From contig DATHOE010000034.1 in NCBI GenBank assembly GCA_035485275.1, positions 93,677-157,676 on the forward strand: a stretch of DNA of 64,000 bases, written 5' to 3'. This DNA comes from a bacterium. GTDB lineage: Bacteria; Oederibacteriota; JAJYGY01; DAIDJD01. The notes under the pieces were generated by a model. That model saw nothing but the letters and a program-made list of their open reading frames with translations. It ran no database searches and was not told the origin of the DNA. A program made the position numbers and the translations under genes. Every line of letters starts with the position of its first letter. The first letter of the stretch is position 1. Below, piece by piece: positions 15,544 to 59,569 of this stretch.

Positions 15544-16650
15544 CTAAGGGAAGACGGTTTTTGCGAACCATTTTTTGAACTCATCGGTGCGCCTCTCAAA
15601 GAGCCACCAAACCAATGTCGCGTAGCATAGGACCACGCCGCAGACAGCGGCGTAGCCCAGGTAGCCTTCCAGCGTCGGCTGGCTCTTGTGGGGCAGCCTG
15701 AAGGCGTAGAAATAGAACGCCAGCAAAGGGAAATGGACCGTATAGAGGGTGTAGGAAACATTGGAGAGGTGCGCCGAAACTTGTTGGTACAGGGAAGGCC
15801 CTTTTTTCGCCGACGACAGGAAAGGCAGGGTGCACGCGAAGGTCAGCCCCAGGCAGTAGTCGCCGTAGGGAAGGGCGCCGCGCCGGCATAGGATCAGTAC
15901 GACAAGGAACGCGCCCAATAAGAGCATGAAAAAAGCTGGGCGCCGCATCAGCGAACTTATGGGGCTTTTTTCCGCGCTAAAGGAGAAAAATCCCATAAGC
16001 CAGATGAGGCCCATGAGCACCAAACCGGGAGGAAGGACAAATACGCCGACGCAAAACAGAAGAAAATAGACGGTTCTTAGGCTTGGACGGTATTTTGTTT
16101 GGAAGGCCAAATAAGCCAAGGGAAACAGCAGATAGTACCAAAATTCGTTGGCCAAGCTCCATAAGGGCACGTTGCTGCCGAAAACCGGACCGGTGATATT
16201 TTGCAGAAAAAACAGGGTCCTGAGGAACGCAGTGGCGCTGAGGTCGAAGGAGGTTTGGTCGCCGCTATTCACGAGCCGCGTATACTCCCCCAGATAGCCC
16301 TTCGGCCCCAGGGAAAGGCCCGTTCGATCCCAGAAAAAGGTCAGGACGAGGGCAGGAACGAGGACCATCCACAGGCGGCACATCCGGTTTAGGCCGTATT
16401 GACGCCATGTCCAACGGTCGGCGGCGACCGAATTCGCCACCGCCCCACCCACAAAGTACCCGCTCAATACGAAGAAAACGATGACCGCCTGGTGCCCGAG
16501 CCCGGTGAGGAAATAAAAAAAGGCGGTGAACGCATTGGGGGCGCCGATTTCCGGATAATCCACGAAGAAAAATCCCCGGGCATGGCCAAAGGCCACCGCC
16601 AAGGCTGCCCCTCCCCTGATCAGATCCAGATGAGAATTTCTCTCGGCCAT
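15544..16650 (-). CDS. acyltransferase family 3 membrane O-acyltransferase
   Basis: LDLIRGGAALAVAFGH...AVIVFFVLSGYFVG signature and about 10 TM helices. Confidence 0.8.
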   Translation of the reverse strand: MAERNSHLDLIRGGAALAVAFGHARGFFFVDYPEIGAPNAFTAFFYFLTGLGHQAVIVFFVLSGYFVGGAVANSVAADRWTWRQYGLNRMCRLWMVLVPALVLTFFWDRTGLSLGPKGYLGEYTRLVNSGDQTSFDLSATAFLRTLFFLQNITGPVFGSNVPLWSLANEFWYYLLFPLAYLAFQTKYRPSLRTVYFLLFCVGVFVLPPGLVLMGLIWLMGFFSFSAEKSPISSLMRRPAFFMLLLGAFLVVLILCRRGALPYGDYCLGLTFACTLPFLSSAKKGPSLYQQVSAHLSNVSYTLYTVHFPLLAFYFYAFRLPHKSQPTLEGYLGYAAVCGVVLCYATLVWWLFERRTDEFKKWFAKTVFP

Positions 16651-16788
16651 CGGTTTTCAGCTCGATAATTTTTTAAAAACCTTCGCCATAAAGATCATCG
16701 GAGATCGGATAATCCGACAGATATTGAGGTCAGGTTCAAGGGGGGTCAACTTGTAATTTAACGCCCAGCGGAGGCCCCGGGCTCGGCG

Positions 16789-16817
16789 TTGACAGCGGGG
16801 GGGAGGGGCGCAAAAAT
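16789..16817 (+). promoter_or_regulatory. candidate sigma70-type promoter (TTGACA - 17 nt - AAAAAT) upstream of the FkbM methyltransferase gene
   Basis: TTGACA at 16789..16794, 17-nt GC-rich spacer, A/T-rich hexamer at 16812..16817; located in divergent intergenic region. Confidence 0.35.
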
Positions 16818-16872
16818 ATACTGGTACTTTGGCCCTCAGATCGGGCTGCTTTGATGCATTGGAGCGGGGACA

Positions 16873-17772
16873 ATGGGATTTTTTGGAAGCCTGAATTTTG
16901 TCGTGAAACATCCGTTCAACCAGGGACATTCCTTTTCTGCGGTCAAAAGATACATAAACTGGCAGATCGCCTGCCGCTTGGCGCCCGGCGCCTTGGTTTG
17001 CCCGTGGGTGAACGGCACCAAACTGGTGGCCGGCCCGGGCGACCATGGCGTCACGGGCAACATCTATTGCGGACTGCATGATTTCGAGGACATGGCCTTC
17101 GTGCTCCACGCGCTGCGTCCCGACGACCTGTTCCTGGACATCGGAGCCAACGCCGGCAGTTACACCGTCCTGGCCTGCGGAGCCGTCGGCGCCAGGGGGA
17201 TCTGCATCGAGCCGGTCCCCGCCACCTTCTCGAAACTGCTCCTGAATATCAGGGTCAACGACCTCGGCGGACGGGTGCGAGCATTGAATGTGGGCGTGTC
17301 CGACAAGGCCGGAGTCCTGCTCTTCAGCACCGCGGAAGACGCGATGAACCATGTGGTCGAGGGGACCAAGGAGGGCACGGTCAGCGTCGAAACTCGGACC
17401 CTGGACGCGATCCTGGGCGAAGAGACTCCGGCCATCATCAAATTGGACATTGAAGGCTTCGAACTTCCGGCCTTGCGCGGAGGGAGCGCACTGTTTTCCC
17501 GTACGGGCCTGCAGGCCGTGATCATGGAGCTGAACGGGAGCGGCGAGCGTTACGGCTTCGACGAGAAGGACATCCTGCGCATGATGTCTGAATTCGGCTT
17601 TGAACCGGGCCTTTATGTCCCTGAAACGCGGCGGATAGCGGCCTTGGCGACGCCGAACAGAAAAGGGAACACGCTCTTCGTCCGCGACCGGGACAGGCTC
17701 GCCGGCCTGTGCCGGCAGGCCCCGGCTGTGGAGATATTCGGCGGGACCTATTTACGCCCGCCCAACGCGTAA
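16873..17772 (+). CDS. FkbM-family methyltransferase
   Basis: LFLDIGANAGSYTVLA ... IIKLDIEGFELPAL motifs typical of FkbM family. Confidence 0.8.
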   Translation: MGFFGSLNFVVKHPFNQGHSFSAVKRYINWQIACRLAPGALVCPWVNGTKLVAGPGDHGVTGNIYCGLHDFEDMAFVLHALRPDDLFLDIGANAGSYTVLACGAVGARGICIEPVPATFSKLLLNIRVNDLGGRVRALNVGVSDKAGVLLFSTAEDAMNHVVEGTKEGTVSVETRTLDAILGEETPAIIKLDIEGFELPALRGGSALFSRTGLQAVIMELNGSGERYGFDEKDILRMMSEFGFEPGLYVPETRRIAALATPNRKGNTLFVRDRDRLAGLCRQAPAVEIFGGTYLRPPNA

Positions 17773-17814
17773 ACGAGTTTTTGGGCGGGCGATTAGCGGA
17801 ACGCCGTGAAAGGG

Positions 17815-17843
17815 CTTTGAATATCCGGGTCGGCCAATATAAT
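17815..17843 (+). promoter_or_regulatory. candidate promoter (-10 TATAAT at 17838..17843) upstream of the metallophosphoesterase gene
   Basis: TATAAT about 57 nt upstream of GTG 17901, weak -35 CTTTGA 17 nt upstream; followed by small inverted repeat CTCCGG-N8-CCGGAG. Confidence 0.3.
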
Positions 17844-17900
17844 AAGGCTCCGGGACGCCGGCCGGAGTCCTGACAAAAACGTCGGCAAAGGACTTGGGTT

Positions 17901-18590
17901 GTGCCTGCAGAAGACAAACGCGACATCATCGTGATTCCGGACGTGCATGGCAGGGAGGACGTGCTTGAAGCCATGCTGCGCGCCACCAACTTCGTCGATG
18001 GCGAGGGAAGGCTGACGCCGTCCGACACATGGCTGGTGCAGCTGGGGGACATCCTGGACCGCGGCCCCCGTCCGCGGGCCTGCGTGGAACGGCTGATGTC
18101 CATTCAGCAGCAGGCGCCGTCCCGGGTGACAGTCCTTAAGGGCAACCATGAGGAGATGGCCCTGCACGCCGACGACCCGGCGGTGAAGCGCCTGTGGCTG
18201 CTCAACGGCGGCGGAAGCACCTTGGACGACTATGAGGGCGAGTTCGAACGCTTTCTTTTGCCAGGCGGGAAACATTATCAATGGCTCGACGGCCTGCCAC
18301 TTTTTTTCGAGTTCAAGAACGTCCTGTTTTGCCACGCCGGATTGGGGAAAAAACGGAAGGGGCGCCTGGAGGCCGATGGAGTGCTCTGGGACCGTCCGCC
18401 CCTTGAACGAGGACCTTACCGGGCCGTTGTTTGCGGGCACACGCCCACCGCCAGCGGCCACATTGAGGAGGTCGCGGGGGTCTGGCGCTGCGATCTGGGC
18501 TTGGGTCACGGCACGGAAAAGGCCCTGGAGGTCCTGGTCTTGACCGTGGGCGATTCGACCTTGGCGTCCCGGATAGTGCATTTCACCTAG
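17901..18590 (+). CDS. calcineurin-like metallophosphoesterase (PPP-family Ser/Thr-type phosphatase / ApaH-like)
   Basis: Metal-binding motifs PDVHGRE (GDxHG-like), LGDILDRG (GDxxDRG), LKGNHEE (GNHE), CGHT. Confidence 0.75.
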   Translation: MPAEDKRDIIVIPDVHGREDVLEAMLRATNFVDGEGRLTPSDTWLVQLGDILDRGPRPRACVERLMSIQQQAPSRVTVLKGNHEEMALHADDPAVKRLWLLNGGGSTLDDYEGEFERFLLPGGKHYQWLDGLPLFFEFKNVLFCHAGLGKKRKGRLEADGVLWDRPPLERGPYRAVVCGHTPTASGHIEEVAGVWRCDLGLGHGTEKALEVLVLTVGDSTLASRIVHFT

Positions 18591-18659
18591 TCCTACCGTA
18601 TAATTGCCCCCGATTTTCCTTGGTACCTAAGGTTTTTGAACCGTTCAGGAGATCGAATC

Positions 18660-19847
18660 GTGCCCAATTCCAGGTCCCTTTCTCGGTTCAGCGGCAAAGC
18701 GGGCCAGGACATTTCGGTATTGCATGTGATCGGCAGCCTCTCCGGCGCGGCCGGAGGCCCAAGCCGATGTGTTCCGGATCTATGCCTCGGCAGCTCCGCA
18801 GCCGGCATAAGGGTCGGGATCGCGTTCATGGACGGGGCAGGTGAGCTGTCCATGGAGGCCAAGCGCCTGCCAGGCCACGGCGTCCGGTGCCATCCCCTGC
18901 GTCTTTGGGACGCGCCTTGGGCTCTATGGCGGATTGCGCGGGATTACGACGTCGTGCACGTCAACGGCGTCTGGAGTTTTTTGCCCACCTTGGGCTGCCT
19001 GATCGCCCGGCTGCGGCATAAACCGCTGGTGGTGGCCCCACACGGCATGCTGGAACCCTGGTCCTTGGCCAAAAAAAGGCTGAAAAAAAAGTTGGGACTC
19101 TGGCTTTACCAGGGCAGGGTGCTGCGTATGGCCTCGGTATTGCAGGCCACGGCCGCGAGCGAAGCGACCAATATCCGGGACCTTGGACTCGGGAACCCGG
19201 TGGCGGTCATCGCCAACGGCGTCCAAATTCCGGCCATCAAGGGCAGCCTTGCGCGGCTTAAGGGGAAGGCGCGGCGCCTGCTCTTCCTTTCGCGCATCCA
19301 TCCCAAGAAAGGCGTCTTGGAATTGGTGCGGGCTGTGGCGGCCCTGCGCACGATCATAGGGGACGGGCATTGGATCGTGACCGTCGCCGGGCCCGACGAG
19401 GGTGGCCATCTAGCCGAAGTGCAGGCGGAGGCGCAGAGGCTCGGCGTCCTATCTTTCTTTGAGTTTCCCGGTTCCGTCGAGGACGAGGAAAAATGGTCCC
19501 TTTACCGCTCCGCGGACCTTTTTGTGCTTCCCACTTACAGCGAGAATTTCGGCTTGGTGATCGCCGAAGCCCTGGGCTGCGGCGTGCCGGTGGTGACGAC
19601 GCAGGGGGCTCCGTGGAGCGAATTGGAGAGCCATCACTGCGGCTGGTGGCACCCTATCGGCCAGAAGAACCTGGAAGCGGCGCTCAAAGAGGCGCTGCTT
19701 TGCCCTCCCCGGACCCTGAAGGCGATGGGCGGACGGGGCCGTAAACTGGTCCAAAAACGCTACGGATGGGACCTGGTGGTGGCCCAGCTGGAGCAGCTAT
19801 ACCTGTGGGTATTGGGAAGGCGGGGCAGGCCAGAGGGGCTTCATTAA
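18660..19847 (+). CDS. glycosyltransferase family 4 (GT-B)
   Basis: VLHVIGSLSGAAGG N-terminus, C-terminal VLPTYSENFGLVIAEALGCGVPVV (EX7E-type motif); GTG at 18660 preceded by AGGAGA. Confidence 0.8.
   Translation: MPNSRSLSRFSGKAGQDISVLHVIGSLSGAAGGPSRCVPDLCLGSSAAGIRVGIAFMDGAGELSMEAKRLPGHGVRCHPLRLWDAPWALWRIARDYDVVHVNGVWSFLPTLGCLIARLRHKPLVVAPHGMLEPWSLAKKRLKKKLGLWLYQGRVLRMASVLQATAASEATNIRDLGLGNPVAVIANGVQIPAIKGSLARLKGKARRLLFLSRIHPKKGVLELVRAVAALRTIIGDGHWIVTVAGPDEGGHLAEVQAEAQRLGVLSFFEFPGSVEDEEKWSLYRSADLFVLPTYSENFGLVIAEALGCGVPVVTTQGAPWSELESHHCGWWHPIGQKNLEAALKEALLCPPRTLKAMGGRGRKLVQKRYGWDLVVAQLEQLYLWVLGRRGRPEGLH
19071..19090 (+). repeat. A7 and A8 homopolymeric tracts inside GT4 coding sequence
   Basis: gccAAAAAAAggctgAAAAAAAAgttg read directly; encodes KKRLKKK. 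Confidence 0.85.
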
Positions 19848-19994
19848 AAGAAGGCAAGCTGGGGGGCTAGACTGGGATACCCGCTTAAAGTAAAATTACG
19901 CCCAGCTCGTTTTTGTTTCACAATCCCTGCCTGTTCTTCCGCGGCCTTCTTGTTCCACAAGAACCTGCGTGAAAAGGCTGAAAAGGCGACTACG

Positions 19995-20717
19995 ATGTTT
20001 CTTGGCGGGAGAATAAAGGCCCGGCTCGGATCGCGGGTTTGGTTTTGCATGTGTGCGGCGGCCGTTTTGATCATAAGCACCACGCCTGGCTTCGCCTCCG
20101 GCTTTTCCCAATCATCGAATGACTTTACGCTGTTCAACGGCGCGGATTATCCGCCCTTTCTTATCGGCCCCGGGGACATTTTGACCGTGTCGGTCTATGG
20201 GGAGAAGGATTTTCCAGACAGGTATCTGGTCGAGTCCTCAGGCAAGATCGTTTTGCCGCTTGCAGGCGAGGTCAAGGTGGCGGGCCTCACCCAAGCCCAG
20301 GCCGGCGCCGCCCTTGCGCGCCACCTTTTGCCCTTTGAGAGAAATCCCCAGGTCACGGTCCTGATCGCCGAATCCAACAACTATAACGTGTCGATCCTGG
20401 GGGCTGTGGCCCACCCGGGGAAATACCCCATCCATGGGAAAGCGGATTTACTGGATATTTTGGCTGATTCGGGCGGACCGACGGACCAAGCGGCCCTGAA
20501 CAATGCCGTTTTGATCCGACGTAACAGGCGCATTTCTTTACCCCTCAAGCAGTACCTTTTGGATACGGACTCCACCGTGTCACAGCCCCTGTTGTACCCC
20601 GGAGATGTCATAGTGGTGCCGGAAACCATCTGGCCGAGCCTGGCCGAATGGGGCATCATCGCGAGCATCATCACCAGCGGAGTGCTTGTATACGCCGCCA
20701 TTGAGAATCGCCCGTGA
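19995..20717 (+). CDS. polysaccharide export protein, OPX/Wza-like (short form)
   Basis: Signal peptide, PGDILTVSVYGEKDF (Poly_export motif), SLBB-like segment, C-terminal TM helix; ATG at 19995 (residue 16 of ORF 19950). Confidence 0.75.
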   Translation: MFLGGRIKARLGSRVWFCMCAAAVLIISTTPGFASGFSQSSNDFTLFNGADYPPFLIGPGDILTVSVYGEKDFPDRYLVESSGKIVLPLAGEVKVAGLTQAQAGAALARHLLPFERNPQVTVLIAESNNYNVSILGAVAHPGKYPIHGKADLLDILADSGGPTDQAALNNAVLIRRNRRISLPLKQYLLDTDSTVSQPLLYPGDVIVVPETIWPSLAEWGIIASIITSGVLVYAAIENRP

Positions 20718-22684
20718 ACAATCCCTCCCCCGGATTTACGCCCGCCGATCACAAGGGAATACGTCCCAATACGCGGTCATCCGTTCAGGCCGACGGCGCA
20801 CATCTTGGTTCGGAGTTGGCCGACATCCTTCGCTTGGTCCTCAAACATTGGAAGCTGATGTTGTTGGTCCTGCTGGCGGTGGCCTTGTCGGCGCTGGCCT
20901 ACGTGGAGACCGCGGTCCCCATGTGGCAATCCACGGCGACGGTCAAACTGCCGGTGGCGGACACGACCGGCGACCCGATGGAACAGCTGCTGCAGATGAA
21001 TTCCGCCAACGACCCCGTTGAAACCTATATGGAGGTCGCGAAGAGCCTCAATGTCGCTCTTCGCGTTGCACGGGATCTGGATTTGACGAATACGGCCCAG
21101 TTCGGGGGGGCCAAGGATTTGACCGCGGTCGCCGGGGCCCTTATCAACTCATTCTCGGTCACGACCGTGGAAGGGAGCAACATCCTCTCCTTCCGGGTGC
21201 AGGCCAGCGACCGGAGGTTGGCGGCGAGGCTCGCGAACGCGTGGGCGCAGGCGTTCATAGACGTCAACCTCGATTTCAACCGCACAGGGGCCGACAGCCG
21301 CCGTAATTTCATCGAGTCCCAAATGGCCGCGCTGAAGGTGACCCTAACCAACGGGGAAGAGGCCTTGACGAAGCTCGCCCAGCATCAGGGCGTTCTCCAT
21401 CAGGCGGGCGGCGAAACCCAGGATCAAGGCGAATCCCTGATCGCCGAGCTGCAGATGAAGGCCGAGGATCTGGAGATTGAGCGTAGCACGCTGGCGACCC
21501 GCTATAGTCCGAATAATCCTCGCTACAAGGAAGTGGACGCGGAGTACCGTGAAGCCGAGAGGGAGCTGCAACGACGGATGCTCCAAATGCCGACCCAGGA
21601 GATGGATTATTCCCGCTTGGCCCGGGAAGTCAAAGCGAACGAAGCGATGTACGACCTGCTTCTTGAAAAAGACCAGGAAACCAGGATTTCCGAGAATGTG
21701 GACGACAGCGGGATTGTGGTCGTGGACACGGCCCTCCCGGCCAACACCCCTTTTAGTCCGCAAAAAAAGCGGATCGTTTTGTTGGGCCTGCTGGTCGGGC
21801 TTCTGCTGAGTTTTTCCGCGGCATGGAGCCTGGAGCGCTGGCTCGACCAAGTCGGAGGCGAGGCGGAGCTCTTCCGTTTGAGCGGCCTGCCGGCCCTGGC
21901 CATGATCCCGAATTGGCGTTATGAGCTCAAAAGCACCCAGGCGGCCGGCGCGAAGCAGAAAGCCGGAGGCCCCTCCGAAGAAGGGCTTCCCCAGCAGGAA
22001 ATGGAAGGCTTGATCATCATGCCGTCCCTGAAGAACACCTACTACAGCGAGTCCTTCAAGATGCTGCGGACCAATCTGGCCTTCAGCCAGGTCGACAGGC
22101 CCATCAAGACTTTTTGTGTCCTGTCCGCGAACGCCTCCGAAGGCAAGACGACAATAAACTCCAATCTGGCGCTGACGCTGGCAGCGACCGGCAAAAAGGT
22201 GCTGCTGGTGGACGGCGACCTTCGCAAACCGAGGCTGCACAAGCTTTTCGGTCTGAAGGTCGGTTCGGACGTCGGGCTGCCTTTTTTGCTGAACGGGCAG
22301 GCCACCTTGGAGTCCCAGCTGCGCCAGGGTCCGGTTCCGGAATTGTCGATACTGCCCTGCGGGGTGATCGTCCCGAACCCGTCCGAACTCATGGCGTCCG
22401 CCATCCTTGAGAAGATCCTGCAGACTATGCGTGAGCGCTTCGATTACGTGATATTCGACGCCGCGCCTATTCTGCCCGTGACGGACGGCGTGGTGTTGGC
22501 GACGCGTTTGGACGGCGTCGCCCTCGTCGTGAAGCACGAGGGCACCCGCCGCCTCGAGTTGCGGGTGGCCTTGGAGCACTTGGCTTCGGCCAAGGCCCCG
22601 GTCTTGGGCACGATCTTGAATTCGGTGGATATGAGGAAATATTCCTACACCTACGGATACAAAAGCCAATCTTATGGGGATTAG
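20714..22684 (+). CDS. wzc: polysaccharide co-polymerase / BY-type tyrosine autokinase (Wzc-like)
   Basis: N-terminal TM plus coiled-coil chain-length domain; Walker A SANASEGKTT, A' VLLVDGDLRKP, Walker B DYVIFDAAP; C-terminal tyrosine cluster KYSYTYGYKSQSYGD. Confidence 0.85.
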   Translation: MNNPSPGFTPADHKGIRPNTRSSVQADGAHLGSELADILRLVLKHWKLMLLVLLAVALSALAYVETAVPMWQSTATVKLPVADTTGDPMEQLLQMNSANDPVETYMEVAKSLNVALRVARDLDLTNTAQFGGAKDLTAVAGALINSFSVTTVEGSNILSFRVQASDRRLAARLANAWAQAFIDVNLDFNRTGADSRRNFIESQMAALKVTLTNGEEALTKLAQHQGVLHQAGGETQDQGESLIAELQMKAEDLEIERSTLATRYSPNNPRYKEVDAEYREAERELQRRMLQMPTQEMDYSRLAREVKANEAMYDLLLEKDQETRISENVDDSGIVVVDTALPANTPFSPQKKRIVLLGLLVGLLLSFSAAWSLERWLDQVGGEAELFRLSGLPALAMIPNWRYELKSTQAAGAKQKAGGPSEEGLPQQEMEGLIIMPSLKNTYYSESFKMLRTNLAFSQVDRPIKTFCVLSANASEGKTTINSNLALTLAATGKKVLLVDGDLRKPRLHKLFGLKVGSDVGLPFLLNGQATLESQLRQGPVPELSILPCGVIVPNPSELMASAILEKILQTMRERFDYVIFDAAPILPVTDGVVLATRLDGVALVVKHEGTRRLELRVALEHLASAKAPVLGTILNSVDMRKYSYTYGYKSQSYGD

Positions 22685-22758
22685 CGACAAGTGTCGCGGG
22701 CGCAACCCGGTGGCGCCCGTCGACAAGGAGCATTTACAGTTAAGACGAAGGGGCGGCG

Positions 22759-24069: not shown

Positions 24070-24097
24070 CGGCCAGCCGTTCGCTCCCCAGGGGCGC

Positions 24098-25603: not shown

Positions 25604-25775
25604 GGGCCGGCCGGTCCCATAGGTACCCGCGGTTCCCGCGCCCCCCTGAGGCCCCTGGCGACCCGTTTGACCCTATGCTATCGTGTGTGGGTTGCGGTTC
25701 CCGGCGGTGTTTTGTCCGGCCCGCGCGGGGACGGCGGACCGACAGTCCGCATATTTTGGACAGATATGGGAGCAG

Positions 25776-29415: not shown

Positions 29416-29416
29416 C

Positions 29417-30511: not shown

Positions 30512-30567
30512 CGTTTCATCGCCCCTTCCGCGGATGGATGGGGCGAGCTCCGTTTTTAAGGCGTCCG

Positions 30568-42186: not shown

Positions 42187-42227
42187 GCGTTTCCCCTGTC
42201 CCCTTGCGGACGTTCCTCCGGCCCGCG

Positions 42228-43619: not shown

Positions 43620-43683
43620 CAGAGGCGTCCATTCAGCGGAGCTTCTTAAAGACCGGCCGAAGGCGGCGCCGGCAGACTCCTGT

Positions 43684-45824: not shown

Positions 45825-46169
45825 AATTCAACCCGCTCCGAACATGCCCCGATCCGGGGCGTAAGGGTTTCCTTGGCCCGGCGTCATTGCCGTATTTTGG
45901 CCCAAATGGCGGGCAAAGGGGCAGGCCCCCTCTTGCCTTAATCGCCCAAGCCAAGCCCGGCCGAACACAAGGTGCCGCTATTCTTGGCTGAACCGGCCTA
46001 GCTTAACACGTGGCCCAGTCCGAATCCTCTAGTTTTTTTCGTGGATTCGGCGAACCGTTGCAGGTCCCAACTACGTTGCATCCGAACTAGGATACGCATA
46101 TTGAGATTGAAATCCCGGACTGCGCCTGAGATAAAAGCCGCAAGCCCCGCGCACGGAGGACCACCGATC

Positions 46170-47045: not shown

Positions 47046-47108
47046 ATCAGGTATTGGGGCGGGGCCTGTTCCGCCAGGGGAGTCACCGTAAATGGCCCCG
47101 GTACCTTG

Positions 47109-48491: not shown

Positions 48492-48725
48492 ACTGTGTTC
48501 TAATTTTTTGATTTTGCGGATGCCTGAAAAACGAGGTGCCGGATTATAATTCCCGCTGCCATAAGAAGCAACGGGCCGGGGCGAAAGGCTGCGGAATGAT
48601 CCCCCGGGCTGGCGCCAATTGGATCGCGTTCCGAATGGATTTGACCCAGCATTTGCTATACACTTTGCGCTTTCAGGAGCCGGTCCGTTAGGGGGACTCG
48701 GCTTACCGTCTAGCCAGGTTGTCGC

Positions 48726-49484: not shown

Positions 49485-49551
49485 CGGCGGAATCGCGTTT
49501 TTTGTCCAGTTAAGGCGGCCCTGACAGCCCGTTCAGAACTCAAGGGAAACC

Positions 49552-50607
<1,056 letters not shown>

Positions 50608-50608
50608 G

Positions 50609-52114: not shown

Positions 52115-53370
52115 GAATATCCGCGGCCCTGCTGTACGCGGTCGCTTTCATGGCCCAATACCATTTTTTGATGGTCCCCCATTTCGGCTATTGGGGCTTC
52201 GGGGACCTCAGCGGCGTCCTGGAGTGCCTTTATCTTCTGCCTTTGATGGTGGCGCCGGCCCTGTGCATGCCCGAGCGGATCGACCGCCCGTCGGCGCTGT
52301 TCGCGTTTTTGAACTACACGATCATCTATGTGCCCGTCTGCGTGCTGCTGTTCCATTCCACGCTGACGTCGATCAGCCTCGCGGACCAATGGGCGATATT
52401 GATCGCCTTGGCCGCCAGCACTGCCTTGCTCTTTGAGGTCCCGCGTTTGCCCTCCATCCCCCTGCGCCGGGGCAGGCTGAGCGGGGGCGCGATTCTGGCT
52501 GCCTGCTGGTGCGTGCTGGGCGCGGTGGTGCTGATGACCCTCGCCGTCAACAGGATCGGGTTCTTCGGGTTCAAGGGGATCGGAGCCGCCAGGGCCGCCT
52601 ACACGGAAAATATCCGCCCTCTGGGCCCCTATTTCGGGTACTTCGACGCCTGGTGCGGCCTGGCGATCATCCCTTTCCTGTTCGTGGTCTGTTTAAGGAA
52701 AGACCGCCGCTGGGGCTGGCTGCTCCTGAGCGCGGTGTGCGTGCTGCTGTTCATGACCTCGGGGCGCAAGACCGCCCTGCTCACGCCCTTGGCGGTTTTG
52801 GGCAGCTATTTCGGGGTGAAGAAGGGTCTCAGGACCCCGGCGCTTTTGTTCGTGTTTTCGGGCCTCTTGCTGGTCCCCTTCGTCTTCGGGGCCCTCGGGC
52901 TCTCGGGCCCCCGCGACCTATACTACAATGTCATCAATTTCAGGATCTTCGCGGTGCCACAGATCCTTATCCCGCAGTATTACAGCTATTACCTGGCCAA
53001 CGGATTCACCCACTTCCGCAGCATCAATGTGGTCAACCGGTTTTTCTTTGGAGGGGCGGCGTTCGAGCAGCCCTGGGCCGCCATCGCCCGCTTCTATTAC
53101 AAGAAAAAATTCACGGCCGATGCCGTGTTCTATGCGACCGACGGCCTGGCGGCCTTGGGCATCGTGGGGATCCCCTGCGTGACCGCGGCTTGCGTTTTGG
53201 TTTTTTGGATCTTTGATTCCCTGCAAAAGGGGCATTCCGCGCTGTTGATGCTCCCCTGCATGATGCCCTTCCTTTTTTCGTTGTTCAACAATTCGCTGTT
53301 TACTACGATGCTCACCGGCGGTGGCTTCGTGCTGATGGCGCTGTTCTATCTGCTTCCGGATACCGCGTGA
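52105..53370 (+). CDS. polytopic membrane protein, putative Wzy-type polymerase
   Basis: 421 aa, about 10 TM helices, follows Wzx-like gene with overlapping start. Confidence 0.5.
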   Translation: MPLRISAALLYAVAFMAQYHFLMVPHFGYWGFGDLSGVLECLYLLPLMVAPALCMPERIDRPSALFAFLNYTIIYVPVCVLLFHSTLTSISLADQWAILIALAASTALLFEVPRLPSIPLRRGRLSGGAILAACWCVLGAVVLMTLAVNRIGFFGFKGIGAARAAYTENIRPLGPYFGYFDAWCGLAIIPFLFVVCLRKDRRWGWLLLSAVCVLLFMTSGRKTALLTPLAVLGSYFGVKKGLRTPALLFVFSGLLLVPFVFGALGLSGPRDLYYNVINFRIFAVPQILIPQYYSYYLANGFTHFRSINVVNRFFFGGAAFEQPWAAIARFYYKKKFTADAVFYATDGLAALGIVGIPCVTAACVLVFWIFDSLQKGHSALLMLPCMMPFLFSLFNNSLFTTMLTGGGFVLMALFYLLPDTA

Positions 53371-53410
53371 AAGCCGCGCCCATCCGTTGTTTTAGGAGTC
53401 CGGGATTCCA

Positions 53411-53983
53411 GTGAAGTCGGCCGTACGGAAATGGTGGGGACGTTGCGCCGCTTTGGCGGTGTGTCTCCTTTTGATGCAAGTGGCCTGGTTCGAGTATGTG
53501 TTCAGTTGCCCGGCCCCCGCGCTCCAGGCGGACATGCTGGCGGTCTATGGCGGGGATCCCCCGCGCTACGCCCTGGGCTGGGCCGTCGAGCGGCAGGGCC
53601 GCTTCAATTTTCTGGTCTTTTCCGACGCCCACGCCGATTTTTTGGCCCAGATGAAGGGCCAATATGGTCCGCCGCGCGCCGCGCGCTTGCTGCTCGAACC
53701 GCGGGCCCGGTCCACCGCCCAGAACGCGCGTTATGTGGCCGTGCTCATCCGCGACCATGGGTGCAGGAGCGTGCTGGTCATCACGTCCTGGTGGCACCTG
53801 CCCAGGGCTCTCTTTTTGACCCACCTTGCGTTGCTGGGCAGCGGCGTGGAAATTTCCGGCCTGGGCTCGGAGCTGCGTCCCTCGGTGGCGTGGAACGATC
53901 GCCGCGTGTGGGAGGAGCTGATCCGGTTCTGGGGCTCGTTGCTGACGTTCACGTCGGACACCCACAACACCTCTTTTCTTTAG
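53411..53983 (+). CDS. DUF218 (YdcF/ElyC/SanA-like) family protein
   Basis: STAQNARYVAVLIRDHGCRSVLVITSWWHLPRA pattern typical of DUF218. Confidence 0.6.
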   Translation: MKSAVRKWWGRCAALAVCLLLMQVAWFEYVFSCPAPALQADMLAVYGGDPPRYALGWAVERQGRFNFLVFSDAHADFLAQMKGQYGPPRAARLLLEPRARSTAQNARYVAVLIRDHGCRSVLVITSWWHLPRALFLTHLALLGSGVEISGLGSELRPSVAWNDRRVWEELIRFWGSLLTFTSDTHNTSFL

Positions 53984-54000
53984 CGTTCCAGGGACAGGGC

Positions 54001-55917
54001 GTGGCCAAAGTGCGTATCTCATTTTTGGGAAAAGGCGGCGCGTTTTGCGCGCTCCTGGTTTTGGCGGCCTGTGTTCAGGCCCACGATTATTTTGTCGCCC
54101 CCTCTGGGATGGACAGCAACCCCGGCACCCTGGACCAGCCCTTCCGGACCCTTGCCTGGGCGGTCCCCTATGTCCGCGCGGGGGATACCCTGTATCTTCG
54201 CGCCGGGGTGTACCGTCAGGCCGTCAGCGTCGAACACGGCGGCACCGCGTCGGCGCCGGCCGTGTTCAGCGCCTACGGGGCGGAAGCCGCGGTTTTAGCG
54301 GGTAGCGATCCCCTTGTCGGAACCTGGAAAAAATACGACGGGAAGATATGGTGCCTGGACGGCGTGTCACGCACCTCGGACCTTTTCGTGGACGGCCAGG
54401 AGATGTCCATAGCCCGATGGCCGACTGCGGGTCCCGGTGCGCCCATGGACCAGGGATGGGCCCTCACCGGCGCCGGAACCAACGCGGCGGTCGTCGCAGA
54501 TCCCCATTTACCGGACCTTCCCCTGGTCGGGGCCCGGGTGCACATCGTCCCCGGCTTGGCCTGGGTCAGCTTCACCCGGTCGATCAAGGAATACGGGCGG
54601 GGAAGGCTCACCCTGTCGAGCCCGGTTTGCGGCGCGACGCCCGCCTATTGCCCCAGGCCCGGAAACCGCTATTTCCTTTACGGGAGCCTGGCCCTCTTGG
54701 GCGGCCCCGGCGAGTGGTACCAGGACCCGGCGACACTGCGGATCTACCTCTGGGCCCCGGACGGCCGCGACCCCGCCGACCACCTGGTTGAGGTGGCGCG
54801 GCGCAAGGCGGTCATCCGGGACGACGGCTATTCCCACGTCGAATTCCGGAATCTGCACACCTTCAGCGGGGGCATCAAGATCAGCCGCTGTGTGGGATGC
54901 AGGGTGATCGGGGTGGACCAGCGTTACGTGCAGCGCTATACGGAGGTGGAGGGATATTCCGCCGAAAATCCCACGAATTCGCTCTACGCCGGAAGCGACT
55001 GCGAATGGGCGGACGGATCCATTGAGGGAAGCAGCGGCGACGGTCTGGCGGTTTCCGGCACGCACCAGCACGTGCACGACATGCTCATCCACGACGTGTG
55101 CCGGGAAGCCAGCTACTCGGGGGCCCTGGCCCTGCTCGGAAGCGGGCAGGTCATCGAGAACAACACCCTCTATGACAGCGGTCGCTATCTCATCAACCTG
55201 GGGACAACCCACGGCGGACGCATCGCCCACAACGACCTGTACAATTCCGGCTTGCTGACGAACGACTCGGGGGCCATCTATTCATATGACACCGACGGCG
55301 CCGGCATGGTCATTGCCTTCAACGACGTGCACCATGCGCCCGGCACCCGCGGTGTCGGGATCTACCTCGACAACGGCGACTCCGACTACGTGGTGCTTCA
55401 CAATCTTGTCCATGACTGCGCCTGGGCCGGGGTCGAATTGAACCTGCCGAGCAACTGCAATGTCGTCTGCAACAACACGCTTTGGAATTGCAAGCATTGG
55501 GTTTGGGCCGACGGCAACATCCATTACCACTCGATGACCGGCACGGTGCTGGCGAACAATGTGGTCAACGGGACCGAATTGCTGGTGAGGGACCGTTTGG
55601 CGCCCGTCCAGGTGCGCAACGCCGCCCTGCTCCAGCCGCCGCAGCTCTTCGCGCCGGGCGGCTTCTCACTGGCCGCGGGCTCCTGGGCCATCGCTTCGGG
55701 GGTTTCGATCCCGCCCTATACCGACGGCGGATGCGGCGCGGCCCCGGACCTGGGGGCCATCAATTACGGCTGCGGCCAGGATTGGAGCGCGGGTTGCGCC
55801 CGCAGGCCGGCGGCCTTCCCGTATCCGGCGCTGGAAATGCTCGGCATGGGTCCGTCCCCGGGCCCGGACCCCCGGACGGAGCACCCTTCGGCCGGCGGAG
55901 CTGCGCCGTGGAACTAG
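54001..55917 (+). CDS. secreted right-handed parallel beta-helix repeat protein (pectate-lyase-like fold; candidate polysaccharide lyase/hydrolase)
   Basis: Signal peptide ISFLGKGGAFCALLVLAACVQA; repetitive NN/ND-rich beta-helix pattern (NNTLYDSG, AHNDLYNSG, AFNDVHHAPG, LHNLVHDC, CNNTLWNC); GTG start 54001 or 54010; upstream part of ORF 53431 is an off-frame artefact. Confidence 0.65.
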   Translation: MAKVRISFLGKGGAFCALLVLAACVQAHDYFVAPSGMDSNPGTLDQPFRTLAWAVPYVRAGDTLYLRAGVYRQAVSVEHGGTASAPAVFSAYGAEAAVLAGSDPLVGTWKKYDGKIWCLDGVSRTSDLFVDGQEMSIARWPTAGPGAPMDQGWALTGAGTNAAVVADPHLPDLPLVGARVHIVPGLAWVSFTRSIKEYGRGRLTLSSPVCGATPAYCPRPGNRYFLYGSLALLGGPGEWYQDPATLRIYLWAPDGRDPADHLVEVARRKAVIRDDGYSHVEFRNLHTFSGGIKISRCVGCRVIGVDQRYVQRYTEVEGYSAENPTNSLYAGSDCEWADGSIEGSSGDGLAVSGTHQHVHDMLIHDVCREASYSGALALLGSGQVIENNTLYDSGRYLINLGTTHGGRIAHNDLYNSGLLTNDSGAIYSYDTDGAGMVIAFNDVHHAPGTRGVGIYLDNGDSDYVVLHNLVHDCAWAGVELNLPSNCNVVCNNTLWNCKHWVWADGNIHYHSMTGTVLANNVVNGTELLVRDRLAPVQVRNAALLQPPQLFAPGGFSLAAGSWAIASGVSIPPYTDGGCGAAPDLGAINYGCGQDWSAGCARRPAAFPYPALEMLGMGPSPGPDPRTEHPSAGGAAPWN

Positions 55918-55940
55918 GGCGTCCGGCAAGGCAGGGGCGG

Positions 55941-57149
55941 GTTTGCCTTCTTTGGCATCGTTTTGGGCCATACCATCACGCCCGCTTGAAGGCCGTCCAG
56001 GCCTTGCGGGACTGCGTCGGGGTCGAGTTCTCCTCCGTTGATCCGACCTACGCCTGGGACAAGGTGGCCGCGAAATCCGGCTCCAAGATGGTGACCTTGT
56101 TTTCCGACAGCTTTTCGCAGGACATCCCGGTCCGGAGGATCGAACGCAGGCTCGGGGAGGTCTTCGCCGCCATCCGCCCCGCGGCGGTCGTCATCCCCGG
56201 TTGGTCCGACCGGGTTCCGCTGGCGGCCCTCGAATGGTGCGTCAGGCAGCGTGTCCCCGCGGTGCTGATGTCGCCGAGCCAGCGGGGCGATGCGCCCCGG
56301 GTCTGGTACAAGGAGTGGCCGAAAAGGCGGATCGTGAGCCTCTTCAGCGCGGCCTTGGTCGGCGGTGCGCCCCAGAAACGCTATTTGACGGAGCTGGGCT
56401 TTCCCGGCGAAAGGGTCTTTTTCGGTTACAACGTCGTCGATAACGCCCATTTCTCCAAAGGGGCGAGGAAGGCGCGCAATTCCGGGGAGGCGCTCCGCAT
56501 GCGGCTGGGGCTTCCAAAGGATTACTTCCTGGTCTCGACCCGCTTTGTTCCGAAAAAAAACCTGGAGAGATTCCTGGCGGCCTACGCCGCCTATACACGG
56601 AAGGTTTCAGGGCGACCCTGGAGCCTAATCCTCCTGGGCGACGGACCCCTGCGGCCCAAGCTGGAAAGCATGGTCGACGCGCTGGGTTTGCGGAATTTTG
56701 TGGGCATGCCTGGCTTCAAACAATACAATGACTTGCCCGTCTATTATGGATTGGCGAAAGCCATGGTGTTGCCGAGCGCGTCTGAGCAGTGGGGCTTGGT
56801 CGTGAATGAGGCCATGGCGGCCGGCCTGCCGGTGCTGGTGTCCGGCGCTTGCGGCTGCGCGGAAGACCTTGTTCGTGACGGGGTGAACGGTTTTTTGCTG
56901 GACCCCTTGGACACGGAGCAAATGGCTGAAGCCCTTCTCAGGACCAGCCGGGCGAAGAAAAAATTGGCCCACATGGGCGCGCTGGGCGCCCGGATCATAG
57001 GGCAGTGGAGTCCGCGGACCTTTGCCGAAGGCCTGTCGCGGGCCTTAGAGTCGGCGCTGAGGGCCCCGTCGGCCGGATTCGGGCCCCTCGACAGGATGAT
57101 TCTCGGCGTGGTCCAGCGCCAGAATCTAAAAGGTTACCGGGATCAATGA
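55941..57149 (+). CDS. glycosyltransferase family 4 (GT-B); start codon unresolved
   Basis: SASEQWGLVVNEAMAAGLPVLVSGACGCAEDLV motif; no canonical start found just upstream of the homologous region. Confidence 0.7.
   Translation, partial: VCLLWHRFGPYHHARLKAVQALRDCVGVEFSSVDPTYAWDKVAAKSGSKMVTLFSDSFSQDIPVRRIERRLGEVFAAIRPAAVVIPGWSDRVPLAALEWCVRQRVPAVLMSPSQRGDAPRVWYKEWPKRRIVSLFSAALVGGAPQKRYLTELGFPGERVFFGYNVVDNAHFSKGARKARNSGEALRMRLGLPKDYFLVSTRFVPKKNLERFLAAYAAYTRKVSGRPWSLILLGDGPLRPKLESMVDALGLRNFVGMPGFKQYNDLPVYYGLAKAMVLPSASEQWGLVVNEAMAAGLPVLVSGACGCAEDLVRDGVNGFLLDPLDTEQMAEALLRTSRAKKKLAHMGALGARIIGQWSPRTFAEGLSRALESALRAPSAGFGPLDRMILGVVQRQNLKGYRDQ
56553..56560 (+). repeat. A8 homopolymeric tract inside GT4 coding sequence
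   Basis: ttccgAAAAAAAAcctgg read directly (encodes PKKNL). Confidence 0.85.
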
Positions 57150-57185
57150 TGTCATTCGGTCAATTAGCGGGCGTCGGGTTGAAAC

Positions 57186-58472
57186 GTGGGTAGGCCGAAA
57201 ATAGGCATCGTCTCCGGAATTCTGAACCCCAGATACGGCGGACCACCGGCGGTGATACGCGGCCACATCCGCGGGCTCGGCTCGCGGGCCGAAGTGAAGG
57301 TCTTCGGCGTGCAGGATCCCGGGGACGAGGCGGAGTTGCGCGGCCTCTATCCGGGATGCGAGCTGTTTCCGAGGGCCTTTCCGAAGCGCTGGTTCAGGGG
57401 CCAGGGCCTGCGCCAGGCTCTGGTCGAGCAGGCGCCGGGCCTGGATCTCCTCCACGCCCACATGCTTTGGGACCACACCGTGTGGGCGACGGCCCACGCC
57501 GCGCGCAGCGCCAAGGTGCCCTTCATCGTTTCGCCCCACGGCAACATTTTGAACGTCGAACCGTGGTGGCCGCCGCACAAGGTCGCCTACCGTGAAATCG
57601 TCCTCAAACCCCTGCTGAAAAATTGCGCCTTCGTGCACGCCCTGAGCGAGCGCGAGGCCGAAGGCTGCCGGCGCTTCGGGGTCGTCTGCCCCATCCGCGT
57701 GATCCCCAACGGCCTGCCGCTGTCCGACTACTCCCTGCGCAGGGATCCGGAGCTGGCGCTGGAGACCTGGCCCGCCCTGAGGGGACGGAGGGTCCTGCTG
57801 TTCATAGGTCGCCTGGCGCCGCTCAAGGGCCTGGACATGCTGTTGAACGCGTGGAGCCGCTGCCTGCACGACCCGAGTTTGCGCGACTGGATTTTGGTGA
57901 TCGCCGGCCACGACTACCGTGGCTACGCCCAGCAGGTCGCGCTCCAGGTGAAGGCGCTGGGTCTGGAGGGAAGCGTGATCCTTCCGGGACCCGTGCTGGG
58001 GGCCCTGAAACAGTCCCTGCTGGGCCATGCCGAGGCCTTCGCCCTGCCCTCCCGCACGGAAGGCTTCAGCGTCGCCCTCCTGGAGGCCCTGTCGGCGTCC
58101 CTGCCCTGCGTGTACACGACCGAATGCCATTTCAGCGACCTGGCCAAGAAGGGCGGGGGCTGGGAGGTCCAGCCCAACGCCGGCGACCTTTCCGAGGCCC
58201 TCGAGCTCGCGTTGCGGCAGACGCCGGAACGCTTGAAGAGCATGGGCGCGGCCGGGAACGCCCTGGGCCGGGCCAAGTACAGCCTTGAACGGGTGGCGGA
58301 CCAGCTGCTGGACATGTATAGGACGGCGCTGGGGCGGCGGGGGCTTCCGCCGCCGCGGAACGCCGGCCTGGCATACCATAAAAACGGGGCCCAAAAAGGG
58401 CGCGGGCCGGCGCAGACGGCCGTGCAATTCAGCTGGCGCAGGACCGGAGGCGGATGGGCTCGTCCGGCCTAG
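57186..58472 (+). CDS. glycosyltransferase family 4 (GT-B)
   Basis: KIGIVSGILNPRYGGPPAV N-terminus; FALPSRTEGFSVALLEALSASLPCV motif; GTG start. Confidence 0.8.
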   Translation: MGRPKIGIVSGILNPRYGGPPAVIRGHIRGLGSRAEVKVFGVQDPGDEAELRGLYPGCELFPRAFPKRWFRGQGLRQALVEQAPGLDLLHAHMLWDHTVWATAHAARSAKVPFIVSPHGNILNVEPWWPPHKVAYREIVLKPLLKNCAFVHALSEREAEGCRRFGVVCPIRVIPNGLPLSDYSLRRDPELALETWPALRGRRVLLFIGRLAPLKGLDMLLNAWSRCLHDPSLRDWILVIAGHDYRGYAQQVALQVKALGLEGSVILPGPVLGALKQSLLGHAEAFALPSRTEGFSVALLEALSASLPCVYTTECHFSDLAKKGGGWEVQPNAGDLSEALELALRQTPERLKSMGAAGNALGRAKYSLERVADQLLDMYRTALGRRGLPPPRNAGLAYHKNGAQKGRGPAQTAVQFSWRRTGGGWARPA

Positions 58473-59569
58473 GCCGCGATTTTTTTGCGCAAATCCATGA
58501 AGGGCTTTTCGACCAGCAGGTAGGACGCCGCACCCAATACCAGCGAAAAGACGATACAAAAAAATTGGGACTCCAACGATTCGCCTCCGAACAAGATCAC
58601 GGCCGCCAAGAGGCCGACCGTATGAAGCAGGTACAGCGAATAGGAGATGGTCCCCAGCCAGTGGAACGCTAAAAAACCCGGGGTCCTTCCTTGTTTCGTC
58701 TCCGTGGGCGCAAGTTCCAGCATCACCAGCGTCAGGATCAGGAACGCGCAAGCATAGGGCATGATCCATCGGTTCAGTTCGGATCCGTGAAACCTGAGGT
58801 TGAGGACCGGGACCAGGAAATTCAAGGCTATCGCCAGGAAAAGAAAGCCGAGCGTCCGGCCCCGGGGCCCGTAAAAATTTTTCAGCTTTTCGAAACTCGC
58901 CTTTTTGACGGTCCATTCCGCGAGCAGGGCCCCGAGGTACCAGGACCAGAATGTGGTGATGAAAACTTCCTGCGCGACAATCCGCCAGGGATTCGCCTCG
59001 GCGATGAAACGGCTCACGAAAAAATACCAGACGAGCGCGGCCATGAAGGCCAGGGTGAGCTGCTTCAGGGAGAAATCCAGCGCTTTGAAAGCCAGGGCGT
59101 AACAGAGATAAAACTGGGCCTCGAGAGCGATGGTCCAAAACGGGCCGTTGATCGTGCGCCAGCCGAGGGGATAGAAATTGTGCGCAAAAATGAAGTGGAA
59201 GAAAACGTCGTAGGCGCCCAGCGGGGGGCTGATGTCCCCCGTGGTCCGGAAACAGCCGGCAATCAGGCAAACGACGATCGCGAAGTAGTAAGCGGGCACG
59301 ATCCTGAATATGCGGTTCAGCGCGAACGGCCGCAAGGCCAAGCCCCCCTGCCCCCGTTCCGCCCGTATGGCCTGGGGGCGATGGATGCAAAAACCGCTCA
59401 ACACGAAGAAAATGCTCACCCCCCAGAAGCCCAAATTACGCAGTATGGGGTGGTAGCCGTTCAGGTGGTCGTAATATTGGCGGTACATATGGAAAACCAA
59501 CACGGCGAAGGCGGCAATTCCACGCAACACATCCAAGGAATCCAGGCGTTGTTTTGGCGCTGATTGCAT
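58469..59569 (-). CDS. acyltransferase family 3 membrane O-acyltransferase
   Basis: LDVLRGIAAFAVLVFH ... SIFFVLSGFCI signature. Confidence 0.8.
   Translation of the reverse strand: MQSAPKQRLDSLDVLRGIAAFAVLVFHMYRQYYDHLNGYHPILRNLGFWGVSIFFVLSGFCIHRPQAIRAERGQGGLALRPFALNRIFRIVPAYYFAIVVCLIAGCFRTTGDISPPLGAYDVFFHFIFAHNFYPLGWRTINGPFWTIALEAQFYLCYALAFKALDFSLKQLTLAFMAALVWYFFVSRFIAEANPWRIVAQEVFITTFWSWYLGALLAEWTVKKASFEKLKNFYGPRGRTLGFLFLAIALNFLVPVLNLRFHGSELNRWIMPYACAFLILTLVMLELAPTETKQGRTPGFLAFHWLGTISYSLYLLHTVGLLAAVILFGGESLESQFFCIVFSLVLGAASYLLVEKPFMDLRKKIAA

Follow-up and report, generated by a model that had tools for sequence, protein, structure and literature searches.

Does a locus that encodes two flippases and two polymerases represent two polysaccharide assembly systems, or one? 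The question is raised by a ~44 kb island of surface-polysaccharide genes (15544-59569) within a 64,000-nucleotide stretch of bacterial DNA (the window), itself taken from a metagenome contig of 268.5 kb (ENA ERZ27253678, k141_388256). An earlier interpretation made from the letters and their open reading frames (ORFs), here called the sequence-only reading, had proposed two clusters with duplicated wzx/wzy genes fused head-to-tail. Our analysis points, with moderate confidence, to one Wzx/Wzy-dependent assembly and export system of an uncultured diderm, in which two flippase/polymerase cassettes would share one initiating transferase and one export apparatus.

A gene model was built from third-position GC, Pfam and the gene calls of the source, and the families were typed with Pfam and NCBIfam using curated cut-offs. 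The island contains 35 back-to-back genes (~94% coding), a correction of the ~38 counted before. All but one of these, a phosphoesterase (17901-18590), match families of glycan assembly, and the view of the island as a row of surface-polysaccharide genes is thus upheld. Judged by family membership, the predicted products include all five components of a Wzx/Wzy-dependent system, namely an initiating transferase, Wzx, Wzy, a PCP-2a co-polymerase (PCP) with a bacterial tyrosine kinase (BY-kinase, BYK) and an outer-membrane polysaccharide export (OPX) protein. Their distribution is uneven. The only OPX and the only PCP fall in module 1 of the sequence-only reading (18.6-31.4 kb), which lacks an initiating enzyme; the sole such enzyme falls in module 2 (38.7-59.6 kb), which lacks an exporter.

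The sole phosphoglycosyl transferase of the island is a long WecA-like polyprenyl-phosphate N-acetylhexosamine (HexNAc)-1-phosphate transferase of 529 aa (38741-40330, + strand; PF00953 E 8.1e-31; ~9 transmembrane (TM) segments). It scores below the cut-off of the WecA model TIGR02380 (90.1 bits vs 326). It belongs to the MraY/WecA superfamily, and its HexNAc specificity is a prediction. The enzyme sits in a clade of ~30 metagenomic full-length homologues (32-60% identical), to which a metagenome scan with the WecA alignment added only two short members. The C-terminal domain (39850-40330, ~150 aa) is kept across the ~30 homologues with invariant RP, Q, E-G and W positions, and matches neither Pfam families nor PDB sequences. 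We note a further WecA-like transferase outside the window, on a 348 kb contig (protein P0110, 809 aa), which is fused to HAMP, HisKA and HATPase domains; the joining of an initiating transferase with a sensor kinase is unusual.

The export machinery is encoded by two + strand genes overlapping by 4 bp. The short OPX protein (19950-20717; ~222-255 aa) comprises Poly_export (PF02563, 73.9 bits vs a cut-off of 28), one SLBB domain and a hydrophobic C-terminal segment of ~22 residues. No Pfam match to Wza_C, the helix with which Class 1 (Wza-like) OPX proteins span the outer membrane, was obtained at E <= 0.01, and the C-terminal hydrophobic helix could be a Wza_C-like segment. Matches to TIGR03027, EpsE and EpsY are sub-threshold; the OPX proteins of relatives are 49-52% identical. 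In one of these, L171, separate ORFs for Poly_export and for SLBB take the place of a single OPX gene (11551-12266 of that contig), through either a frameshift mutation or a sequencing error. The second gene (20714-22684) encodes the PCP-2a co-polymerase with C-terminal BY-kinase (Wzc-like; Wzz, GNVR and AAA_31 matches; TIGR01007 170.5 vs 108). Its Walker A (SEGKT), A′ (VLLVDGDLRKP) and B (VIFDAAP) motifs can be read directly, as can the C-terminal tyrosine cluster RKYSYTYGYKSQSYGD, with five Tyr among the last 14 residues. Both assignments agree with the sequence-only reading. A PgaA-like 18-stranded beta-barrel, the neighbour expected of a Class 3 OPX, is not encoded nearby: neither the island genes nor the flanking genes matched a beta-barrel family, and a partner elsewhere in the genome is possible. 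An OMP_b-brl gene adjoins in relative L004 only.

The one gene outside the glycan families encodes a calcineurin-like (PPP-type) metallophosphoesterase (17901-18590, +; PF00149 E 2.5e-11; weak Ser/Thr phosphatase matches). It lies upstream of the OPX and BY-kinase genes here, and a 67% identical copy (L171 7428-8120) is found 2 kb upstream of WecA-OPX-BYK in L171. Because of this conservation near the L171 backbone and the lack of a Wzb- or PHP-type phosphatase, we consider that it may be the partner phosphatase of the BY-kinase.

Two flippases of the MOP family are present, Wzx1 (24098-25603, +; PF01943 E 4.4e-14, 53 bits vs 28.2; multiple TM segments) and Wzx2 (50609-52114, +; PF13440 E 1.7e-44, 152.7 bits vs 23). 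The predicted repeat-unit polymerase Wzy1 (27979-29415, +; ~10 TM segments) falls just under the PF14296 cut-off (25 bits vs 26.6), matches an XrtY-associated Wzy-like model (E 5.4e-18) and TIGR04370 (E 3e-6), and is 44% identical to its homologue in relative L002. The second Wzy-type membrane enzyme, Wzy2 (52105-53370, +; 421 aa), itself has no Pfam or NCBIfam match and six close homologues only. A profile search enlarged the family to at least 1637 representatives at 50% identity. Among 74 aligned members, 22 match TIGR04370, ‘oligosaccharide repeat unit polymerase’, while none matches Pfam, including Wzy_C (PF04932), or a ligase model. An earlier AlphaFold2 model of Wzy2 from six sequences had a predicted local distance difference test (pLDDT) score of 50; the present model has a score of 95.5 and a WaaL/SEDS-like fold, resembling WaaL, RodA and FtsW. 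A Foldseek search of the PDB with this model gave no significant match. The name Wzy2 is given because the gene overlaps that of Wzx2 by 10 bp, because it adjoins the Wzx2 orthologue in two relatives, and because of the TIGR04370 matches in its family. The locus thus contains two Wzx/Wzy-type pairs, as had been proposed, but these are not duplicates: there is no BLASTP match between Wzx1 and Wzx2 at 1e-5, and the hhalign probability for Wzy1 against the Wzy2 family is 3%.

Eight relatives offer a readable gene context around the long WecA gene (L002/L003, L004/L005, L006, L007, L008, L171 and contigs of P0011 and P0027). In all eight it adjoins the OPX and/or BY-kinase gene, six showing both. 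The order is WecA-OPX-BYK-MT-Wzx-GT4c (66%)-GT1_2 (67%)-Wzy1 (44%) in L002/L003, where MT is a methyltransferase, GT a glycosyltransferase and percentages are identities to the window's proteins; WecA-OMP-x-BYK-OPX-x-MT-Wzx-GT4-GT4f (36%) in L004/L005; WecA-OPX-BYK-Wzx in L006; BYK-WecA in L007 and L008; WecA-OPX in the P0011 contig; and OPX-BYK-WecA-Wzx-GT-Wzy_C in the P0027 contig. In L171, the closest of the eight, it is Metallophos (67%) ... WecA (57%)-OPX-BYK (59%)-Wzx2 (51%)-Wzy2 (46%, cut by the contig end). A ninth relative, the 3 kb contig L091, shows WecA then OPX. The flippases downstream in the WecA-bearing relatives are always nearest Wzx2 and never Wzx1; Wzx2 itself is 51% identical to its counterpart in L171, 68% in L172 and 33-38% in L002/L004/L006. 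L172 reproduces the order of the window, with Gmd (90%)-Wzx2 (68%)-Wzy2 (66%)-DUF218 (69%)-beta-helix (69%).

Because WecA-OPX-BYK-Wzx2-Wzy2 is contiguous in L171, the two modules of the sequence-only reading divide one conserved backbone. Neither half is self-sufficient, and a head-to-tail fusion of two clusters is not supported. The locus is composite in another sense: it combines two variable cassettes that occur singly elsewhere, GT4c-GT1_2-Wzy1 in L002 and Gmd-Wzx2-Wzy2-DUF218-beta-helix in L172. The comparison across relatives, which had been suggested as a check, supports a single backbone and not fused clusters, and no finding assigns the genes of the second module to an unrelated pathway. 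In the simplest account, a compact backbone (phosphatase ... WecA-OPX-BYK-Wzx2-Wzy2-DUF218-beta-helix) would have been pulled apart in this genome. Some 28 kb now separates BYK (end 22684) from Wzx2 (start 50609), and this stretch (22.7-50.6 kb) holds WecA, the second cassette (Wzx1 and the L002-type variable block GT4c-GT1_2-Wzy1) and most of the decoration genes.

The layout is not an assembly artefact, since an independent contig (L090; Logan SRR7093796), built by a different assembler from a different sample, matches window positions 28762-48987 at 100% identity over 20,226 bp, a segment spanning the proposed module junction. An assembly chimera was rejected on this ground. A 297 kb contig from the Joint Genome Institute (JGI) has the same left junction, in the order tatC-AT3-FkbM-phosphoesterase-GT4-OPX-BYK-GT4-Wzx (AT3, acyltransferase-3). 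The island is bounded by tatC (end 15456) and a DUF374 gene (start 59764). Its GC content is 0.604 vs 0.688 and 0.682 in the flanks, and GC at third codon positions (GC3) is 0.52-0.88 vs 0.87-0.96; individual island genes range from 0.46 to 0.69 GC. It is a compositionally distinct, internally mosaic block, with low-GC patches at 34.7-41.2 kb and 46.0-48.5 kb. The lowest (46000-48500, GC 0.46-0.54), in which a MycE-like methyltransferase gene and a GT87-like gene face opposite ways, seems to have been acquired last. Two relatives have unrelated DNA after tatC (PIN/VapB genes in L086; in L088 a gene for an F5/8 type C protein of 1014 aa), and the site is therefore variable. The features expected of a mobile genomic island (integrative element) were looked for and not found: there is no tRNA, no significant repeat at the edges, no integrase or transposase family match and no insertion sequence.

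The same gene content could be read as two independent pathways lying side by side, OPX, PCP, Wzx1 and Wzy1 making a capsule or exopolysaccharide and WecA, Wzx2 and Wzy2 a lipopolysaccharide (LPS) O-antigen, with WaaL and Wzz encoded elsewhere. Adjacent Wzx/Wzy clusters are common in Enterobacteria; in E. coli the colanic acid (wca) cluster adjoins the O-antigen (rfb) cluster. WecA-type initiation, which is typical of O-antigens, fits such a division, as do the GT9 (LPS-core-type) gene in the island and the DUF374 gene at its right edge. In L171, however, Wzx2-Wzy2 stands directly after WecA-OPX-BYK on the same strand, and L002, L004 and L006 too have a Wzx2-type flippase after their export genes; the Wzx2 set therefore travels with the exporter. 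Two separate pathways would moreover leave module 1 without an initiating transferase, and the Wzy2 family has polymerase-type and no ligase-type matches. We regard independent pathways as possible but unlikely.

The opposite simplification, a single polymer, would make one Wzx/Wzy set redundant, a decaying leftover of cassette exchange, or the source of a different linkage in the same unit, an option that can be likened to the phage-derived Wzy-beta of Pseudomonas. The mosaic per-gene GC is consistent with recent recombination, and cases in which alternative Wzy enzymes act on the same unit are reported (PMC4815439). Yet all four wzx/wzy genes are intact, with ORFs of full length whose third-position GC is normal, and each polymerase lies in an unbroken same-strand run with its own flippase and its own glycosyltransferase set, Wzy1 being three genes downstream of Wzx1 and overlapping the preceding glycosyltransferase gene. 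The flippases are unrelated in sequence, which would fit different substrates. A single polymer seems to us improbable. The second half might also serve protein O-glycosylation, with Wzy2 as a PglL-like oligosaccharyltransferase in place of a polymerase; Wzx2 does give a weak match (4e-13, far below cut-off) to an ‘O-glycosylation flippase’ model. This is very hard to reconcile with the lack of Wzy_C in all 74 Wzy2 family members and the presence of TIGR04370 polymerase matches among them, with the linkage to OPX and BY-kinase kept in L171, and with the co-conserved beta-helix glycan-active protein, and we give it almost no credence.

Several points weigh against the preferred reading of one shared system. 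The survey covered 64 kb of the 268 kb contig, and either cassette could use further initiating transferases, WaaL, Wzz or a beta-barrel partner encoded outside this part. Whether DNA was inserted here or lost from the relatives is judged by parsimony and not by phylogeny, and L172, the closest relative, already carries Gmd before Wzx2, like the window. A family search among the 35 genes found neither a low-molecular-weight protein tyrosine phosphatase (LMW-PTP; Wzb) nor a PHP phosphatase, and the PPP-type enzyme is only a putative partner of the BY-kinase. Among the GT2 enzymes none resembled a polyprenyl-phosphate-sugar synthase that could supply the two GT87-like enzymes described below.

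The remaining genes were assigned as follows. Strand and spacing predict three long transcription units, 16873-31428 (+, 12 genes), 40371-45824 (-, 5 genes) and 48726-58472 (+, 8 genes); in the gaps lie several genes that stand singly or in pairs. The estimate of about 13 glycosyltransferases is matched by 12 soluble enzymes (eight GT4/GT1-type, three GT2, one GT9) and the WecA-like protein. In the first unit are GT4a (18660-19847, +; PF00534 E 3.9e-25; sub-threshold HpsP and XrtY-associated GT matches), the GT4-like GT4b (22759-24069, +; PF13579, PF13524), GT4c (25683-26918, +; PF13692) and the CgeB-like GT1_2 (Glyco_trans_1_2; 26915-27982, +; PF13524 E 4.3e-27), the last two in the same order as their L002 homologues. 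They are followed by a GT9 enzyme of the heptosyltransferase family (29417-30511, +; PF01075 E 2.2e-17; sub-threshold heptosyltransferase I/II matches) and GT2a (30538-31428, +; PF00535 E 3.3e-8). GT4d (31439-32692, -; PF00534 E 6.2e-32) and GT4e (42228-43619, -; PF00534 E 1.7e-18) lie on the opposite strand, together with GT2b (44793-45824, -; PF00535 E 1.7e-29), a Leloir-type enzyme resembling chondroitin synthase (PDB 2z86, 9e-25) and EpsE, its EpsE and TuaG matches being sub-threshold. The third unit opens with the WcaE-like GT2c (48726-49484, +; PF00535 E 2.3e-16; wcaE model E 2.9e-19, sub-threshold) and contains GT4f (55908-57149, +; PF00534 E 1.6e-31), 36% identical to the GT4 after Wzx in L004, and GT4g (57252-58472, +; PF00534 E 7e-24). 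Two GT87-like (GT-C) membrane glycosyltransferases are encoded at 34740-35894 (-; PF09594 38.0 bits vs 25; multiple TM segments) and 47109-48491 (-; PF09594 42.5 bits vs 25; ~10 TM segments; GC 0.46). With Wzy1 and Wzy2 they make up the three or four Wzy/GT-C-like membrane proteins noted previously. A Gtr- or DPM1-like polyprenyl-phosphate-sugar synthase was considered as a feeder of the GT87-like enzymes and rejected, none of the three GT2 proteins resembling one.

Genes for decoration are numerous and bear out the potential for a heavily decorated product. Four acyltransferase-3 (AT3) membrane O-acyltransferases are encoded, AT3a at the left island edge (15544-16650, -; PF01757 E 1.6e-23), AT3b (36094-37170, -; PF01757 E 2.2e-18), its 31% identical paralogue AT3c (37431-38549, +; PF01757 E 1e-19), and AT3d at the right edge (58469-59569, -; PF01757 E 2.1e-26). 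A NodU/CmcH-type O-carbamoyltransferase (32656-34437, -; PF16861 E 2.2e-66; PF02543 E 2.3e-48) and a NodB-type polysaccharide deacetylase (41224-42186, -; PF01522 E 2.1e-18; partial PgaB/IcaB-like matches) are also present. Of three methyltransferases reported, two are clear, an FkbM-family enzyme whose gene opens the first + strand run (16873-17772, +; PF05050 E 4.9e-20; TIGR01444 84.6 bits vs 37.7) and a class I S-adenosylmethionine methyltransferase (Methyltransf_11; 40371-41243, -; PF08241 E 3.7e-15). The third (46170-47045, +; GC 0.54) is a probable but weakly supported sugar O-methyltransferase of the MycE/TylE type (3ssm E 6.3e-5; 8ia9 E 4.5e-4; FtsJ E 0.004).

Sugar-nucleotide synthesis is represented by the GDP-mannose 4,6-dehydratase Gmd (49552-50607, +; TIGR01472 545.3 bits vs an equivalog cut-off of 415), whose L172 homologue likewise precedes Wzx2, and by a DegT/DnrJ-type sugar aminotransferase (43684-44796, -; PF01041 E 1.2e-107). 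The nearest solved structures of the latter are ArnB (7e-73) and perosamine synthase (4e-59), and a PseC model is matched at E 5e-90, below cut-off. As Gmd is present, GDP-perosamine is a plausible product, although the DegT protein scores higher with the ArnB and PseC models. An Arn-like lipid A modification by DegT, GT2b and the deacetylase was rejected, GT2b being a soluble chondroitin-synthase/EpsE-like protein and no ArnA or ArnT family match having been found. The identifications of gmd, the aminotransferase, the deacetylase, the carbamoyltransferase and the four acyltransferase-3 genes in the sequence-only reading are all supported by the family matches.

Downstream of Wzy2 lie a DUF218 (SanA/YdcF/ElyC-like) gene (53474-53983, +; PF02698 46 bits vs 27.6) and a gene for a secreted right-handed beta-helix protein (54001-55917, +; PF13229, Pel9A-like beta-helix; 3vst 4e-10; 9rx2 6e-9), both in positions equivalent to those of their L172 homologues. 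The DUF218 gene, which is in the source annotation, had been masked because the beta-helix ORF was extended at its 5′ end by 190 false codons (53431-54000, +). The hydrophobic leader of the beta-helix protein ends in LAAC; it is probably a lipoprotein and a candidate glycanase, lyase or epimerase for the polymer. Long spurious antisense ORFs typical of high-GC DNA were found at 6962-11443 and 57126-59390 (both -; 1493 aa and 754 aa). No regulatory RNA was matched in Rfam, and the ops antiterminator element GGCGGTAG was not found.

Both flanks carry housekeeping genes. On the left are bioF/bioD-like genes, an undecaprenyl-diphosphatase, an alternative complex III operon (6366-14482) and tatA/tatC; tatC (14719-15456) has a GC3 of 0.92 vs 0.70 in the adjoining AT3a. 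The alternative complex III operon is complete (multihaem cytochrome, molybdopterin-like Fe-S subunit, NrfD-like protein, ActD, cytochrome c and ActF-like membrane protein) and lies directly upstream of tatA/tatC, a synteny kept in relatives L086 and L088. On the right are the DUF374 gene (59764-60444, GC 0.68), a secreted protein without assignment, a nucleotidyltransferase and panD. The secreted protein (60579-61889, 436 aa) is just beyond the island, matches neither Pfam nor NCBIfam and has a C-terminal half rich in Trp, Tyr and Asp. An isolated, poorly known lineage without cultured members is indicated for the host: its TatC falls in a small clade of metagenomic homologues with identities of 58-86%, beyond which no homologue exceeds 40%, a single-protein scan found no close TatC among the GTDB species representatives, and only three metagenome-assembled genomes among these have a full-length long WecA.

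Taken as one system, the locus suggests the following mechanism. The long WecA-like enzyme (38741) would place HexNAc-1-phosphate onto undecaprenyl phosphate, and up to 12 cytoplasmic Leloir glycosyltransferases would then assemble the repeat units from donors that may include a Gmd-derived GDP-6-deoxyhexose derivative and a DegT-made amino sugar. Methyl, carbamoyl and acetyl groups would be added by the three methyltransferases, the carbamoyltransferase and the four AT3 proteins, and N-acetyl groups removed by the NodB-type deacetylase. The lipid-linked units would be flipped by Wzx1 and Wzx2 and polymerised in the periplasm by Wzy1 and Wzy2, and side residues may be attached there by the two GT87-like GT-C enzymes. 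Outward transport would fall to the PCP/BY-kinase and the short OPX, with the PPP-type phosphatase as the likely partner of the kinase, and the beta-helix lipoprotein might trim or modify the polymer. A bolder combination can be conceived, in which the C-terminal domain of WecA, placed in the cytoplasm, couples initiation to kinase and export, the PPP phosphatase replaces Wzb and one machine serves two unrelated Wzx/Wzy pairs; we consider it doubtful that all of this applies together.

The island illustrates how a capsule or exopolysaccharide locus may diversify in a poorly known lineage, by joining exchangeable flippase/polymerase cassettes to a conserved backbone of initiation and export. 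It also provides three leads: a Wzy-type family that is large but lacks annotation, a variant of WecA bearing an extra domain, and a candidate non-canonical BY-kinase phosphatase. The current understanding of polysaccharide assembly is unchanged; the value lies in annotation and in the surface chemistry of this organism.

As judged by family, every component is known from the Wzx/Wzy-dependent pathway with Wza/Wzc-type export. The island resembles the group 1 capsule and colanic acid systems of E. coli (Wza-Wzb-Wzc, WzxC, WcaD) in its OPX, its PCP-2a/BY-kinase with tyrosine cluster, its MOP flippase and its Wzy, and likewise in its many GT2 and GT4 enzymes, its Gmd, its O-acylation and a beta-helix protein whose role is unclear (cf. 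WcaM). GT2c and GT2b give sub-threshold matches to WcaE and WcaA. It differs from group 1 in that initiation is of the WecA/MraY type and not by a WbaP-type WcaJ, in having a PPP-type phosphoesterase and no LMW-PTP Wzb, in its short OPX with one SLBB domain, and in its two flippase/polymerase sets. There are also similarities to the PEP-CTERM/exosortase exopolysaccharide loci (XrtA, XrtY), with matches to XrtA OPX, chain-length and kinase models and to XrtY Wzy and GT models, all far below cut-off; a family search of the window genes found no exosortase (XrtA/XrtY) or PEP-CTERM protein.

OPX classes have been defined, and Class-3 proteins have a median length of 256 aa (PMC9603273). The island OPX is like those of the exopolysaccharide (EPS), biosurfactant (BPS) and major spore coat (MASC) polysaccharide systems of Myxococcus xanthus in being short, of Poly_export-SLBB architecture and accompanied by a PCP/BY-kinase, and it has a sub-threshold EpsY match. 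Cluster members in M. xanthus can be separated by inserted DNA (PMC9603273), as appears to be the case here. In contrast to M. xanthus, no PgaA-like barrel was found in the island, the OPX has a C-terminal hydrophobic helix, and one OPX/PCP is seen for two Wzx/Wzy sets. Overlapping pathways with two Wzx and two Wzy have a precedent in the unipolar polysaccharide (UPP), an adhesin of Agrobacterium tumefaciens, in which each of the two homologues is reported to specify one of two polysaccharides (bioRxiv 10.1101/2021.04.22.440995). Whereas the UPP genes occupy several loci, the island is one 44 kb block, and the sharing of components proposed for it derives from gene content and synteny and not from genetics. 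A further parallel in organisation is to the Klebsiella K, Acinetobacter KL and pneumococcal cps loci. Like these, relatives L002, L004 and L171 have a conserved WecA-OPX-BYK-Wzx block followed by a variable GT/Wzy block, and like capsule loci the island is low in GC and mosaic; unlike them, this genome has two variable blocks together and the conserved block split.

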